Virus genome (UHGV): UHGV-0134920
Strand: one strand, 5' to 3'
DNA from: a virus
DNA: 10,725 nt
Of this stretch, positions 1,652-6,205 are shown piece by piece. The position numbers and the translations under genes were made by a program. The stretch's first letter is position 1. Every line of letters begins with the position of its first letter. Below the pieces are notes generated by a model, which worked only from the letters and a program-made list of their open reading frames with translations, had not been told where the DNA came from and did no database searches.

Positions 1652-1739
1652 AAAAACGGTGTATACCGTTTAAAAACGGTGGGAACTGTTTTTACCCATA
1701 TCCGATGATTTACCGTATTTGTCACCGGAATACACCGGA
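1652..1739. promoter_or_regulatory. repeat-containing control region upstream of alpA
   Basis: Direct repeat AAAAACGGTG at 1652-1661 and 1672-1681; dyad AACGGT-gtat-ACCGTT (1655-1670); direct repeat CACCGGA at 1723-1729 and 1733-1739; RBS-like AAGG at 1745-1748 before the ATG at 1758. Confidence 0.35.
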
Positions 1740-1757: not shown

Positions 1758-1964
1758 ATGGAAGCAATCAGAAAAATTATCTTTCGCCAGGAAGTAAAAA
1801 AAATTATCCACATCAAGGCAGACAGCACGCTGCAAAGCATGATCAACGCCGGAGAATTTCCGCAGGGTTTTCGCGTTGGTTTACGCCGTCGCGGATGGTA
1901 TGAGGATGATGTGTTGGCCTGGCAGAAAGAACGCGAACAGGAAGCACGCGGAACGGCTGCTTAA
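1758..1964 (+). CDS. alpA: AlpA-family DNA-binding regulator / excisionase-like protein
   Basis: 68 aa; HTH region followed by the AlpA/Vis-type motif (GEFPQGFRVGLRRRGWYEDDVLAW); position right after int is typical. Stop TAA at 1962-1964. Confidence 0.8.
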   Translation: MEAIRKIIFRQEVKKIIHIKADSTLQSMINAGEFPQGFRVGLRRRGWYEDDVLAWQKEREQEARGTAA

Positions 1965-1996
1965 CGGGTATCACAGATATGACAAACACGAAAAAA

Positions 1997-2023
1997 GCGG
2001 CCCCGATATGGAGCCGCCTTTCT
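1997..2023. terminator. weak candidate bidirectional terminator between convergent alpA and minus-strand genes
   Basis: 5-bp GC stem GCGGC (1997-2001) / GCCGC (2013-2017), preceded by A6 (1991-1996) and followed by CTTTCT. Short stem, so weak. Confidence 0.25.
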
Positions 2024-2112
2024 GAACAATTAACCCGCTGCGCCTTATGTGTATGTGATCCCAAACATAAGCACGGGGATGATAGCCGCTATCAGGCTGG
2101 TGGGCAATGCAA

Positions 2113-2301
2113 TCAGTCTGGTTCAGTTCGTTGCCATACCTGCAATGAGCGCTTTTCCCTGTACTCTTTAAGGAATTGCTCAAGGGCAAAAGCACATGGC
2201 GCGAATCTTTCTGATTCATGCTCTATCTTTCTGCGCCGTCTTTTCCGTGCCGGTGATAATGTTTTGGTCAATTCTTTATCGGTCATTGTGTTGTCCTGCA
2301 T
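2113..2301 (-). CDS. doubtful small Arg/Lys-rich ORF (62 aa) downstream of the minus-strand regulator
   Basis: Sits in the only sizeable gap without a + strand gene (1965-2343), upstream of the candidate terminator on the minus strand. No convincing RBS; contains RKRRRRK. Confidence 0.2.
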   Translation of the reverse strand: MQDNTMTDKELTKTLSPARKRRRRKIEHESERFAPCAFALEQFLKEYREKRSLQVWQRTEPD

Positions 2302-2343
2302 AGCAATGCGCCGTAATACCTTACACCACGGCGCTGGTGATGG

Positions 2344-2649
2344 TTACTCCTGCTCTTTGGCCTTGCGGCGCTGTAGTTCTTCACGAGCGATGGCGATAAG
2401 TTGCCCGAGTTCTTCCGTAGCTTTAATACCAATTTTTTCCACTTGCGCCAATGCATCGAGAGAAGAAATCAGAGGATTTTCACTGCTTCCTTCTGCCTGG
2501 CGGCGGGCGATCTCCCCGCGCATGGCGGTTACTATGAATCCGGCGTTGCTTTCGCCGTCCAGTTTTACGGATTCCATGCCATCAAAAGCATCATGTGGGA
2601 TACGAATTGAAATCTGTTTTGATTTGTCGTTGATAGTGTTTTTTGCCAT
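2344..2649 (-). CDS. putative DNA-binding regulator (possibly ribbon-helix-helix), candidate island repressor
   Basis: 101 aa from ATG (reverse complement of 2647-2649) with GGAGAA RBS just upstream on the minus strand. N-terminal KQISIRIP segment is compatible with an RHH beta-strand. Divergent from the Icd/Ash/primase operon and adjacent to palindromic operators. The ORF-track start at 2688 is probably an upstream in-frame extension. Confidence 0.6.
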   Translation of the reverse strand: MAKNTINDKSKQISIRIPHDAFDGMESVKLDGESNAGFIVTAMRGEIARRQAEGSSENPLISSLDALAQVEKIGIKATEELGQLIAIAREELQRRKAKEQE

Positions 2650-2671
2650 GTGCATTCTCCTAAACAAAAGA

Positions 2672-2747
2672 TGTGATTCAGTATACACAAAAAAGAATCA
2701 CAAAAAACACTTGATCTGTGATTCAGTTGAATTTAATTTAAATCACA
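2672..2747. promoter_or_regulatory. divergent promoter/operator region with two related palindromic operators
   Basis: TGTGATTCAGT at 2672-2682 pairs with GAATCACA at 2695-2702; TGTGATTCAGT at 2717-2727 pairs with AATCACA at 2741-2747. GTATAC at 2681-2686 could give a minus-strand -10-like TATACT. The region lies between divergent start codons at 2649 (-) and 2837 (+). Confidence 0.6.
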
Positions 2748-2836
2748 CCTCAGTAAGAGGATGTAAACGACAACGCCCCGAACTGTTTGCGGCAGTAGCG
2801 GGGCGTCTAACCAAACCGTTAACAGGAGTAACGATT

Positions 2837-3034
2837 ATGGCTGGAACACAGCATACCCCACGTCTGGCGCACACACAAACTGCCTTTGTGTGGCGTTTTC
2901 TGGCACTGAGTGCCGGAGAATCTCAAATCATCCACGTAACCGCCTGGACGGAACGCGAAGCGCGTAGCCGTTGCCCGTCCGGTTGTGTTGCTGTATTCGC
3001 TGCCCGTATTCGCCAGGGGTCACATCATGCGTAA
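2837..3034 (+). CDS. Icd-like small protein (host cell division inhibitor-like family of P4-like elements)
   Basis: 65 aa; AGGAG RBS at 2824-2828; sequence FVWRF...TEREAR...ARIRQG recalled as the Icd-like signature (from memory, unverified). The upstream part of the 351-aa track ORF is rejected. Confidence 0.6.
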   Translation: MAGTQHTPRLAHTQTAFVWRFLALSAGESQIIHVTAWTEREARSRCPSGCVAVFAARIRQGSHHA

Positions 3035-3488
3035 AAACCGCTTGCAAAAAATTATCACGGGGCTGTATGCTTCCCCCGTCGCCCACATGGCGACCGGGTT
3101 TAGCAGCCTGAATACATCTGGCGGACAGCCGCCCACATCCGATAAGCGGTTTTTTTGTGTCCGTAAACCTACCCATACCCGCATTATGGCGGGGCGTAAC
3201 GGGGGAGCCTTTGTGCTCGCTGGTTTCCAGATGACCAGTCTGCTAACCCTGTTACGTCTCGCCACCATGTTTAGCAGCGTAGTAGCGAGACTCCTTAAAA
3301 TTCATCTGGGAGCCTTTCACATGGCTGTATTCGCACGCCCTTATTTTGTCTGGCGCTTTATGCAGTGCCTGACAGACAGTATTGCAATATTCACCGTTAC
3401 CGCTGCCACTGAGCGCGAAGCACGTGCACAGCTGCCGCACGCACATCTGATTTTTGTCGCCCGTATTCGTCAGGGGGTAGGCTTATGA
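3027..3488 (+). CDS. Ash-family-like protein with C-terminal Icd-like module
   Basis: ATG at 3027 overlaps the upstream stop by 8 nt. C-terminal ~55 aa (YFVWRFMQ...TEREARAQ...ARIRQG) are paralogous to the preceding 65-aa protein. An internal start near 3321 (MAVFARPYFVWRF) cannot be excluded. Stop overlaps the next start (ATGA at 3485-3488). Confidence 0.55.
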   Translation: MRKNRLQKIITGLYASPVAHMATGFSSLNTSGGQPPTSDKRFFCVRKPTHTRIMAGRNGGAFVLAGFQMTSLLTLLRLATMFSSVVARLLKIHLGAFHMAVFARPYFVWRFMQCLTDSIAIFTVTAATEREARAQLPHAHLIFVARIRQGVGL

Positions 3489-4160: not shown

Positions 4161-4460
4161 ATGAAACTTAAATATTCTGGCTTAACTGCCAGTGGCAAAA
4201 CTCGCACTAAATTCATGCGCGGTGATATTTACCGCGACCAGTACGGCGGCACGGTAATGATTAAGGGCGTGGAGGAACGGCGCGTAACCTACCGTCGTGA
4301 AGGCTACGAATATGATTGCGTGATGCCTGTTTATCAGTTCGATCGTGATTTTTCTCTGGTGCAGGCCGTACCGCGTAACGTGCCCACCAGCAGGGAGAAA
4401 GCACGCGCCAATATTCAGGAAATAAAAAAGATGCTTAACGTATTCAGGGGTAAAAAATGA
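4161..4460 (+). CDS. hypothetical protein (99 aa)
   Basis: GGAG at 4146-4149 upstream; stop overlaps the primase start (ATGA at 4457-4460), indicating operon coupling with the replication gene. Confidence 0.5.
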   Translation: MKLKYSGLTASGKTRTKFMRGDIYRDQYGGTVMIKGVEERRVTYRREGYEYDCVMPVYQFDRDFSLVQAVPRNVPTSREKARANIQEIKKMLNVFRGKK

Positions 4461-6205
4461 AACTGGCACCGAACGTAAAAAAACAGCCACGCGGAATAAA
4501 ACACAAAGACACAGAGGTAATTATTTTCGCGGGTAGTGATGCCTGGTCGCACGCGAAACAATGGCAGGAGCAGGATGGCCCCGCATCCGGCGATAATGTG
4601 CCGCCTGTGTGGCTTGGGCCAAATCAGCTTGCCGAACTTGATGCACTGAAAATTGTTCCGGATGGAAAAAAACGCGTAAGGCTGTACCAGGCCGGAGAAC
4701 TGGATTTGGTGGAGACCAAAAAGATTGGTCAGAAGCTGGCGGCGGCAGATATTCAGGACGCAAATTTTTACCCCGAAGGAATGCACGTCCAGAAGTGTGA
4801 AAACTGGCGGCGCTATCTGAATGCTGAGCGTGAAAATATTGCCGCAGGGCTTACCATGCCGGAGCAGAAAAATACGCAACTGGCACAAATGGCAGACAGT
4901 GAGCGCGCACAGATGCTTGCTGGTCGATTTGATGGCGTTTGTGTGCATCCGGAAAGTGAAATCGTTCACGTATGGCGCGGCGGGGTATGGTGTCCGGTCA
5001 GCACAATGGAACTTAGCCGCGAAATGGTGGCGATCTATTCAGAGCACAGGGCCACTTTCAGCAAGCGCGTAATCAATAACGCCGTGGAAGCGTTAAAAGT
5101 TATTGCCGAACCAATGGGCGAGCCGTCCGGCGATTTGCTGCCGTTCGCCAATGGTGCGCTTGACCTGAAAACGGGGGAATTTTCCCCGCACACGCCGGAG
5201 AACTGGATCACCACGCACAACGGCATTGAGTACACGCCACCAGCACCAGGGGAGAATATCTGCGACAACGCGCCAAACTTTCATAAATGGCTTGAGCACG
5301 CAGCCGGAAAAGACCCGCGCAAGATGATGCGTATATGTGCCGCGCTGTACATGATTATGGCGAACCGGTACGACTGGCAGATGTTTATTGAGGCCACCGG
5401 AGACGGCGGGAGCGGCAAAAGTACATTCACCCACATCGCCAGCCTTTTAGCGGGGAAACAAAACACGGTAAGCGCGGAAATGACATCGCTTGATGATGCT
5501 GGTGGGCGTGCGCAGGTTGTCGGGAGTCGTCTTATCGTCCTGGCAGACCAGCCGAAATATACAGGCGAAGGCACGGGCATCAAGAAAATCACGGGCGGCG
5601 ACCCCGTGGAAATCAACCCGAAATATGAAAAGCGTTTCACTACGGTAATCAGGGCGGTGGTGCTGGCGACCAATAACAACCCGATGATATTCACCGAACG
5701 GGCCGGAGGCGTGTCACGTCGTCGGGTTATTTTCCGCTTCGACAATATCGTAAGCGAGGCAGAAAAAGACAGGGAGCTACCGGAAAAGATCGCGGCTGAA
5801 ATCCCAGTCATTATCCGCCGCTTGCTGGCGAACTTTACCGACCCTGAGAAGGCACGGGCTTTACTACTGGAACAGCGTGACGGTGATGAAGCTCTGGCAA
5901 TAAAGCAACAGACGGATCCGGTTATTGAGTTTTGCCAGTTCCTGAATTTTCTGGAGGAAGCGCGCGGCCTGATGATGGGTGGCGGTGGCGATTCAGTGAA
6001 GTACACGACCAGGAACAGCCTTTACCGCGTCTATCTGGCGTTTATGGCATACGCCGGAAGGAACAAGCCGCTAAACGTGGCTGAGTTCAGCAAAGCTATG
6101 AAGCCAGCGGCGAAAGTTTACGGGCATGAATATATTACGCGGAAAGTCAATGGAGTTACGCAGACTAACGCAATAACAACAGACGATTGCGACGCGTTTT
6201 TATAA
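4457..6205 (+). CDS. replication initiator, P4 alpha C-terminal-like SF3 helicase/NTPase (primase-helicase family)
   Basis: 582 aa; Walker A GDGGSGKST, Walker B-like RLIVLADQP and SF3 motif C VVLATNNNP. Followed immediately by an iteron array. A catalytic primase (toprim/AEP) domain cannot be confirmed by eye. Confidence 0.85.
   Translation: MKLAPNVKKQPRGIKHKDTEVIIFAGSDAWSHAKQWQEQDGPASGDNVPPVWLGPNQLAELDALKIVPDGKKRVRLYQAGELDLVETKKIGQKLAAADIQDANFYPEGMHVQKCENWRRYLNAERENIAAGLTMPEQKNTQLAQMADSERAQMLAGRFDGVCVHPESEIVHVWRGGVWCPVSTMELSREMVAIYSEHRATFSKRVINNAVEALKVIAEPMGEPSGDLLPFANGALDLKTGEFSPHTPENWITTHNGIEYTPPAPGENICDNAPNFHKWLEHAAGKDPRKMMRICAALYMIMANRYDWQMFIEATGDGGSGKSTFTHIASLLAGKQNTVSAEMTSLDDAGGRAQVVGSRLIVLADQPKYTGEGTGIKKITGGDPVEINPKYEKRFTTVIRAVVLATNNNPMIFTERAGGVSRRRVIFRFDNIVSEAEKDRELPEKIAAEIPVIIRRLLANFTDPEKARALLLEQRDGDEALAIKQQTDPVIEFCQFLNFLEEARGLMMGGGGDSVKYTTRNSLYRVYLAFMAYAGRNKPLNVAEFSKAMKPAAKVYGHEYITRKVNGVTQTNAITTDDCDAFL

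Follow-up and report, generated by a model that had tools for sequence, protein, structure and literature searches.

A candidate repressor–operator switch of the YlcI/YnfO family at the early operon of an EcCICFT073-type satellite

The virus genome UHGV-0134920 was analysed as one stretch of 10,725 nucleotides (the window), which by its gene content is an Escherichia coli phage satellite of the EcCICFT073 type. We describe here the region 2344–2836, in which a small minus-strand gene, the regulator gene, faces the early operon. The regulator gene (2344–2649, minus strand) encodes 101 residues from an ATG at 2649, and its Shine–Dalgarno sequence AGGAGA (2656–2661, minus strand) lies 7 nt upstream of this ATG. 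A GTG at 2688, listed by the open reading frame (ORF) finder, would fall within a putative operator, and the NCBI annotation pipeline (PGAP) makes no use of it. On the other side, the first gene of the early operon, Icd-like gene 1 (2837–3034, plus strand), encodes 65 residues matching NF033153 at 5e-18 and forms the nested C-terminal part of a longer frame at 1979–3034. Between the regulator gene and this Icd-like gene lie 187 bp (2650–2836), which contain two 31-bp palindromes, TGTGATTCAGTATACACAAAAAAGAATCACA at 2672–2702 and TGTGATTCAGTTGAATTTAATTTAAATCACA at 2717–2747.

By sequence, the regulator belongs to the YlcI/YnfO family and to no other. Residues 9–50 match NCBIfam NF041551 (YlcI_YnfO_N, DUF3950) with 65.7 bits against a cutoff of 30, the hhalign comparison with YlcI of Escherichia coli K-12 gives an E value of 3.5e-4, and the full length matches a PHROGs family with no function assigned. 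The family is small, with 75 matching clusters among 1.84 billion representatives, and it occurs in a long form of ~100–118 residues and a short form of ~55–65 residues that covers residues 1–57 only. In the AlphaFold2 monomer model (predicted local distance difference test score, pLDDT, of 78), an extended segment (1–18) is followed by two helices (19–28 and 35–54) and a long helix (59–100). The elements of a ribbon–helix–helix (RHH) domain, namely an N-terminal strand, two helices and a G-x-S/T/N turn, are all present, with R16-I-P-H-D and G32-E-S34 at the expected places. The sequence reads hydrophobic-x-hydrophobic-R-hydrophobic-P-x-D/E (I-S-I-R-I-P-H-D) together with a G-E-S turn; the counterparts in Arc are F-N-L-R-W-P-R-E and a G-R-S turn, a signature of the Arc/Mnt style. 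Model and sequence both place an RHH-like N-terminal domain at about residues 9–54, in keeping with the possible RHH fold suggested by the initial annotation, and we regard the fold as likely.

Several results weigh against this fold assignment. None of the RHH families in Pfam reaches its cutoff with the regulator (PSK_trans_fac, 16.5 bits against 28.3), the profile comparison with P22 Mnt is not significant (hhalign, E value of 0.15), the Foldseek search of the model against the PDB gave no usable match, and a monomer model cannot display paired strands. The profile search of the PDB returned a single weak match, to the helix–hairpin–helix domain of Hef (E value of 0.015). Residues 67–81 (~2407–2451) read L-x-x-V-E-K-I-G-(I/V)-K-A-x-E-E-(L/I), with I73 and G74 invariant, and resemble a helix–hairpin–helix motif; AlphaFold2 gives one straight helix here.

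Arc contacts bases through Q9, N11 and R13, and by analogy Q12, S14 and R16 are predicted to be the base-contacting strand residues of the regulator. Across 115 family members, positions 12–15 are among the most variable, and S10, R16, P18 and helix B are nearly invariant. The conserved positions of the C-terminal helix are L60, L64, L67, I73, G74, I81, L84 and L92. This helix is missing from the form found in EcCICFT073, which has 59 residues (locus L126, 8473–8652, minus strand; NC_004431.1, 1380473–1380652) and differs from the long form by a clean in-frame loss of 126 nt, apparently between two CGCCGC repeats, that removes this helix. The intergenic region of EcCICFT073 has the promoter scaffold of the other loci and carries GGTGTGGCCCAC twice on it, 23 bp apart. 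As a side observation, K-12 ylcI (L122, 8252–8446, minus strand) encodes 64 residues, the RHH domain alone, and faces away from nohD, the gene of the terminase small subunit, with the DLP12 cos site between them; members of the family are therefore found at the packaging end of lambdoid prophages as well.

The two related palindromes that the initial annotation placed in a gap of ~190 bp are both there. Allowing at most two mismatches, TGTGATT-N17-AATCACA occurs at only these two places in the 10.7-kb window, against a chance expectation of 0.04, and not one of 200 shuffles that preserved the dinucleotides gave two matches. The 8-mer TGTGATTC, too, has exact copies only in these two palindromes within the window. 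The palindromes comprise four 8-bp half-sites whose centres are spaced by 23, 22 and 23 bp. The proximal putative operator O1 (2672–2702) is composed of TGTGATTC at 2672–2679 and GAATCACA at 2695–2702, and its spacer carries the -10 box of the regulator promoter. The distal putative operator O2 (2717–2747) is composed of TGTGATTC at 2717–2724 and AAATCACA at 2740–2747, and it covers the spacer and the -10 box of the early promoter.

These promoters were assigned from conserved boxes. For the leftward regulator promoter, the inferred -10 box is TATACT (2680–2685, minus strand), which is TATAnT in most specificity classes and was unflagged by the promoter scan. For the rightward early promoter, the inferred -35 box is TTGATC (2711–2716, plus strand), which is TTGAC(A/C/G) in most relatives and gives the conserved anchor GTCAAG, and the inferred -10 box is TAATTT (2734–2739, plus strand). 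The inferred starts lie back to back, ~73 bp apart. Repeated putative cognate sites thus overlap divergent promoters between the candidate repressor gene and the operon that it would control, as in switches of the lambda OR or P22 immI type. Two features of the window copy speak against this reading of the region: the leftward promoter has no recognisable -35 box, and the early promoter (TTGATC/TAATTT) matches the consensus poorly and was unflagged by the scan. In two relatives, the homologous early promoter is the sole sigma-70-like site reported by the scan of the region, namely TTGACA-17-TAAAGT with 10/12 in L045 and TTGACG-17-TAACAT with 9/12 in L003. At the early -35 box, most of the closest relatives read TTGACC; the TTGATC of the window may represent a down-mutation of its early promoter.

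We compared the region across ~120 related loci: 9 from one-genome-per-species collections (eight other genera), ~110 from IMG/VR and several from annotated genomes. The loci sample E. coli together with Citrobacter, Enterobacter, Xenorhabdus, Photorhabdus, Erwinia, Pantoea, Lelliottia and Phytobacter, and they have a common intergenic scaffold. Read in the orientation of the regulator, the scaffold consists of the distal site pair, GTCAAG, a T-run, the proximal pair with TGTGTATAnT in its spacer, the Shine–Dalgarno sequence and the ATG. GTCAAG is the reverse complement of the -35 box TTGAC on the opposite strand, and a -10 box TAAnnT lies 17–18 bp beyond it, inside the distal site. The divergent neighbour is an Icd-like gene in nearly all loci, 174–217 nt from the regulator.

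The repeated sites were sought blind, as the most repeated 8-mer in the intergenic region of each strand variant. There are 11 variants of the N-terminal strand, and each has a distinct motif in 3–5 copies every 22–23 bp, at about -120, -98, -75, -53 and -30 from the ATG. The strand KQISIR is found with the half-site TGTGATTC, QSLTAR with TGTAAGAC, QLTTVR with TGTGTTTC, QMTTIR with GTGAGATA, QLKNIR or QIKNVR with GTGTGTAT or GTGTGCAT, QQLNAR with GTGGTATT, and QQINAR with TGGGATTC. The pairing of QLTTVR with TGTGTTTC recurs in E. coli, Citrobacter, Xenorhabdus and Photorhabdus despite diverged spacers. The clearest single comparison is with Citrobacter locus L123, which is ~98% identical to the window in DNA from codon 24 to the stop and differs in the first 23 codons. 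In L123, every one of the four half-sites has GTTTC in place of GATTC, and both promoter boxes (-35 and -10) are kept; strand and sites were thus exchanged together. In several classes (among L002–L121), a fifth half-site lies downstream of the early-promoter start, at ~-120; none is present in the class of the window.

Two observations temper the covariation. First, the strand and the operators are adjacent, so part of their association is linkage. Linkage is insufficient as an explanation, because each repeat carries the identical change and the promoter boxes between the repeats do not vary. Second, the orientation of the inner half-sites varies by class, with head-to-head pairs in some and two direct followed by two inverted half-sites in others (the K-N strands), and this variation would require a flexible tether or oligomer. 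The joint variation of strand and half-site nevertheless supports a repressor–operator switch with separate specificity classes. It also lends indirect support to an RHH dimer whose antiparallel two-stranded sheet would read the major groove. The initial annotation had proposed the palindromes as the operators of the regulator, and the comparison agrees with it: the sites cover the core of a back-to-back promoter pair and covary in sequence with the N-terminal strand over ~120 loci.

The same repeats could instead be recognised by a different protein, as the iterons of a replication origin or as some other site of recombination or packaging. The four to five repeats, ~two helical turns apart with AT-rich DNA between them, would suit such a site. 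However, the motif follows the strand of the regulator, and regulator regions that are 98–100% identical (100% in the JE86 element, L124; 98% in L001) stand next to three different replication genes, namely a D5/P4 primase in the window, a DUF927 primase in L001 and a RepA helicase in L124. The motif therefore tracks the regulator and not the replication protein, which argues against iterons. Conserved -35 and -10 boxes are also interleaved with the repeats, and PICI origins (those of phage-inducible chromosomal islands) are described downstream of pri-rep (PMC6092414). We consider an origin or packaging site very unlikely.

Different specificity classes can share a genome, as L039 and L095 do; in another genome, L076 and L077 are of one class. 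A rule by which islands sharing a genome differ in class was rejected on account of L076 and L077.

The initial annotation took the regulator gene for the only clear minus-strand gene, which needs correction, since a second leftward gene, orf62 (2113–2301, minus strand), follows it and is in turn followed by a strong terminator. orf62 encodes a 62-residue basic protein with the motif SPARKRRRRK and matches phrog_21027 at 1.6e-15. It is called by PGAP in L124 and L126, elements that are identical or nearly identical to the window across orf62. The intrinsic terminator of the leftward unit (2023 to 1991, minus strand) has a 14-bp stem and T6; its tail on the plus strand, CTTTCT, is weak. orf62 would be co-transcribed with the regulator, as the second gene of the leftward unit, and its product is very basic. 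The gene occurs in many, not all, related loci, in four sequence variants. It is missing in 17 of the 19 loci of one class and in most loci from other genera; the exception among the latter is Phytobacter L010, where a different 95-residue ORF follows the regulator.

This arrangement raises the question of a type II toxin–antitoxin pair, in which the regulator would be an RHH antitoxin, orf62 the toxin, and the palindromes would autoregulate the pair only. RHH antitoxins are indeed the best structural matches of the regulator, a small gene does follow it on the minus strand, and its own -10 box lies under a palindrome. Against this, orf62 is so often absent, as in the class just mentioned, and no toxin of a known family is adjacent, orf62 having no Pfam or NCBIfam family match, toxin families included. 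Furthermore, the distal palindrome lies on the divergent early promoter, and the conserved partner of the regulator is the Icd-like operon, not the downstream gene. A toxin–antitoxin pair is thus very unlikely in our judgement.

On the early strand, a stop-free frame of 351 codons (1979–3034, plus strand) starts 15 nt past the alpA stop, runs antisense through orf62, the regulator gene and both putative operators, and ends as Icd-like gene 1. The remaining two frames of that stretch have 18 and 19 stops. Of 101 related loci, drawn from all classes, 99 have a stop-free frame here that takes in the leader, the operators and the entire antisense regulator gene and continues for 100–720 nt further; in EcCICFT073, 1101 nt upstream of the Icd-like start are open. 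It could therefore be argued that the minus-strand ORF is the shadow of a real long plus-strand gene at 1979–3034, with the palindromes lying within coding sequence. Besides the openness of the frame, an Icd-like pseudogene is sometimes annotated by PGAP over part of its length, and phrog_29966 reaches upstream of the Icd domain. The substitutions contradict this explanation. Their mean BLOSUM62 score is -0.13 in the regulator frame and -1.06 in the antisense frame, the latter like non-coding frames, and the third codon positions of the two frames coincide. Because the conservative substitutions occur in the minus frame only, it is the regulator gene that encodes the constrained protein, and the antisense frame merely stays open. 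The family of the minus frame also exists elsewhere without a plus frame continuing past the gene: in the K-12 ylcI control, the same antisense frame is stop-free within the gene and the intergenic region is full of stops. The model of the regulator is confident and fold-like, and a good Shine–Dalgarno sequence precedes its ATG. A shadow ORF is hardly credible on this evidence.

Frame 1979–3034 resembles eta/kil of P4. According to the summary in PMC10111431 (citing Forti et al. 1999), the long P4 gene eta is coupled to vis, the P4 homologue of alpA; the internal early promoter and the CI RNA lie within eta, as does the nested gene kil, and termination is prevented when eta is translated from the late promoter. 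A second long frame in the window (3027–3488, plus strand) has its start overlapping the stop of Icd-like gene 1 (ATGCGTAA), spans the RNA elements of the early operon (a1/b1, terminator and C4, located below), and ends as Icd-like gene 2 (nested ATG at 3321). An open frame that passes through C4 and ends in an Icd-like domain is present in 12 of 12 C4-bearing loci.

Within the early leader, a GC-rich hairpin (2773–2806, plus strand) with an 8-bp outer stem and an inner stem lies ~26 nt past the inferred start. Every related locus has this hairpin, and some of its base pairs vary in a compensatory way (GCCCCG/CGGGGC vs GCCCGG/CCGGGC; AGTG/CACT vs ACTG/CAGT). The hairpin is without a U-tract and without an Rfam match, and RNAalifold gives 6 pairs only, 2 of them with compensatory changes, alignment gaps being limiting. 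A small hairpin, CGTTA-ACAGGAG-TAACG (2817–2833, plus strand), exposes the Shine–Dalgarno sequence of Icd-like gene 1 in its loop, and other leader variants have equivalent Shine–Dalgarno hairpins of different sequences.

The initial annotation expected the protein switch to stand in place of the RNA-based immunity of P4. This does not hold, as a C4 RNA, its putative target and a terminator all lie within the early operon. The C4-type antisense (immunity) RNA (3182–3269, plus strand) is a full-length match to RF01695 with 72.7 bits (gathering score 45; E value of 5e-13), and a b2-like TTTAGCAGC follows it directly at 3270–3278. The putative a1/b1 target element of C4 (3065–3114, plus strand) scores 45.5 bits with RF03163, just short of its gathering score (46.7). 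A terminator with a U-run closes an isrK-like element (3078–3156, plus strand), which ends in GCGGTTTTTTT and scores 36.8 bits with RF01394 (gathering score 50). Matches to C4 and isrK in Gram-negative PICIs were noted earlier (PMC10111431). The window would thus hold both layers, with RNA immunity of the P1/P4 type downstream of a protein-controlled promoter. Among relatives the RNA module is optional: Rfam detects it in 3 of 20 loci and an nhmmer profile in 11 of 118, spread across several classes; the nhmmer profile was used for the C4 count, blastn having overlooked diverged copies. The protein–operator layer therefore appears to be the constant feature and the RNA layer the optional one.

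The organization of the whole element is that of a Gram-negative PICI of the EcCICFT073 type: int, alpA, a regulatory zone, primase, the single-stranded DNA-binding protein (SSB) gene and late genes follow one another unidirectionally over ~10–15 kb, and on this layout we assign the window to that class. The window is syntenic gene for gene with EcCICFT073 (1377930–1388654 in NC_004431.1, flanked by roxA and phoQ) and with the JE86 element. The initial annotation used P4 as its frame of reference, which the assignment replaces, the element being no canonical P4: the core of sid, delta and psu with an alpha primase is not found, and sid, delta and psu are in neither the ORF list of the window nor the annotated homologous elements. 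Family libraries were scanned with the first ten early ORFs, and the identities of late ORFs come from the annotation of homologous elements.

The integrase gene (2–1261) is followed by an AlpA-like helix–turn–helix gene (1758–1964, plus strand), which scores 17.6 bits with Pfam PF05930 (cutoff 21), matches excisionase/regulator families in PHROG and occupies the alpA position, that of the EcCICFT073 gene annotated as a helix–turn–helix transcriptional regulator. Past the leftward genes come two Icd-like genes, several small ORFs, a DUF4222 gene, the D5/P4-type primase (4457–6205), SSB and the late genes, which include a major capsid protein, a head-decoration protein and other genes syntenic with EcCICFT073. 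Upstream of alpA (1652–1682, plus strand), AAAAACGGTG occurs twice, 21 bp apart, with the first copy within the inverted repeat AAACGGTGTATACCGTTT; these are candidate sites for autoregulation by AlpA. In the relatives L005, L008 and L021, the int-alpA RNA motif of Rfam lies between int and alpA. Replication genes of three kinds (D5/P4 primase, DUF927 primase and RepA-family helicase) stand beside regulator regions 98–100% identical to that of the window, and the modules of such elements have undergone extensive shuffling. A regulatory module 98% identical to that of the window is also present in a capsid-forming PICI (cf-PICI). Of 5426 complete E. coli genomes, 675 contain DNA similar to 2344–2836, and in 324 of these the match extends over at least 80% of that length.

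Taken together, we consider it probable, with moderate confidence, that the 101-residue YlcI/YnfO protein is the maintenance repressor of this EcCICFT073-type satellite; what we say about its DNA binding, its sign of regulation, its oligomeric state and the inducing signal is inferred from sequence comparison. In the mechanism that we propose, the RHH-like N-terminal domains would dimerise and their paired strands (Q12, S14 and R16) would read the 8-bp half-site TGTGATTC. The long C-terminal helix would join dimers over ~23 bp, so that four half-sites at 22–23 bp could be occupied. Occupation of the distal pair (2717–2747) would cover the spacer and the -10 box of the early promoter and turn the Icd-like/primase operon off, and occupation of the proximal pair (2672–2702) would cover the regulator's own -10 box (TATACT, 2685 to 2680) and lead to autoregulation. 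Transcripts that escape would meet a second barrier in the C4 RNA, the a1/b1 target and the terminator (3065–3269), as in P1 immI and P4.

The published work on EcCICFT073 weighs against a need for such a repressor. AlpA is the known activator of islands of this type, it is switched on by the helper and is sufficient for induction of EcCICFT073, and this induction is explained by AlpA alone with the repressor unneeded (PMC6092414). The protein may accordingly bind the sites and act mainly as an activator or as a Cro-like modulator after induction, with quiescence resulting from the lack of AlpA and from C4 termination. The requirement for AlpA alone in the published induction fits this alternative (PMC6092414), and so do three features of the region: the regulator promoter is without a -35 box and so may need activation, the distal site, at ~-47 to -74 relative to the inferred start of leftward transcription, occupies a typical activator position, and the EcCICFT073 form is without the C-terminal helix. 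However, the sites overlap the -10 box and the spacer of the early promoter (the -35 box in some classes), which is the usual position for occlusion. In addition, the gene is divergent from the early operon and lies outside it, and C4 is missing in ~90% of related loci, where nothing else is visible to hold the operon off. A role mainly as activator or modulator is therefore unlikely, and we retain maintenance repression as the probable function.

How repression would be lifted is less certain. The eta-like frame together with the AlpA dependence of EcCICFT073 led us to propose a readthrough route. Helper-triggered AlpA would drive a translated rightward transcript from alpA, past the weak plus-strand tail of the terminator (1991–2023). 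This transcript would pass through 1979–3034 antisense over the repressor gene, then across the operators and the RNA barrier, as the late promoter of P4 does through eta. AlpA-driven transcription and translation would have three simultaneous effects, namely silencing of the repressor gene through convergent transcription, sweeping of the operators and overriding of the C4 terminator, so that a single switch would account for both quiescence and AlpA-dependent induction; we put this forward tentatively, as a possibility that is rather doubtful. A further idea, that short homologues from helper phages poison the repressor through mixed dimers, was dropped, no homologues being found: tblastn of the 101-residue protein and of a 61-residue short-form relative against 50,697 phage records gave no match.

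If the proposed function is correct, it would supply the missing master repressor for this class of satellites and a testable handle on how the islands are kept silent and woken by helper phages. The specificity classes would explain how several islands coexist in a cell without cross-talk, and they would constitute a set of small orthogonal repressor–operator pairs. The YlcI/YnfO family (DUF3950), known from E. coli K-12, would also gain a function by it; the gene is present in the prototype EcCICFT073, in the 59-residue form, and in cf-PICIs. No functional study of YlcI, YnfO or DUF3950 was found in the searchable literature, nor was a later paper that assigns a master repressor to this class of satellites, subscription journals lying outside the coverage. 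The published model of Gram-negative PICIs is activation by AlpA (PMC6092414), and a 2026 survey lists the gene, in cf-PICIs, only as an accessory 'prophage-associated protein' (PMC13612085). The switch appears to be of an ordinary type, built from an uncharacterised family and distinguished by its specificity classes, its C4 RNA immunity and its antisense nesting in an eta-like frame, and in the searchable literature its presence in the prototype island has gone unremarked.

Among known systems, we compared the region with the immI region of P22 (Mnt, Arc, the ant operon and the sar antisense RNA). Both have a small, divergently encoded RHH repressor (putative here) with a C-terminal oligomerisation helix, an operator on back-to-back promoters and an antisense RNA in the region. 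The strand motif x-R-hydrophobic-P-x-E/D and the G-x-S turn of Arc and Mnt resemble those of the regulator. However, P22 has one operator of 17–21 bp, in contrast to four to five half-sites 22–23 bp apart here, and there is no detectable sequence homology. The P22 operon encodes an antirepressor, whereas the operon here encodes Icd-like proteins and a primase, and the specificity classes belong to the present system. In NikR, two RHH dimers are held apart on a central domain and read half-sites ~two helical turns apart, in the site GTATGA-N16-TCATAC. The likeness to TGTGATT-N17-AATCACA is one of geometry only; the putative oligomerisation domain of the regulator is of an unrelated kind, and the regulator has no evident metal site.

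The immI region of P1 and P7 (C4, icd and ant, with the C1 operator Op51) also has C4 with targets of the a1/b1 type (putative here) upstream of an Icd-like gene, and a protein operator at the operon promoter as the first layer. The differences are that an unrelated, RHH-like candidate repressor is encoded beside the operon here, that there is no ant gene, and that the C4 module is present in ~9% of related loci. In the immunity region of P4, a long frame likewise comes after an alpA/vis homologue and has an early promoter inside it, and a short gene nested at the C-terminal end and an RNA of the CI/C4 type lie within open frames. Unlike the present region, the P4 region (vis, eta/kil, PLE, CI RNA and seq sites) has a constitutive internal promoter and purely RNA-based immunity (PMC10111431). 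Here the internal promoter bears putative protein operators, and the candidate repressor gene lies antisense inside the eta-like frame. Finally, the Stl and Rpr repressors of Gram-positive PICIs are alike in function only: a leftward repressor is divergent from an excision/replication operon, and a helper is presumed to lift quiescence. Stl and Rpr are larger helix–turn–helix proteins, whereas in the present element int and alpA lie upstream in the rightward direction and the small RHH-like regulator has no known helper-protein partner.

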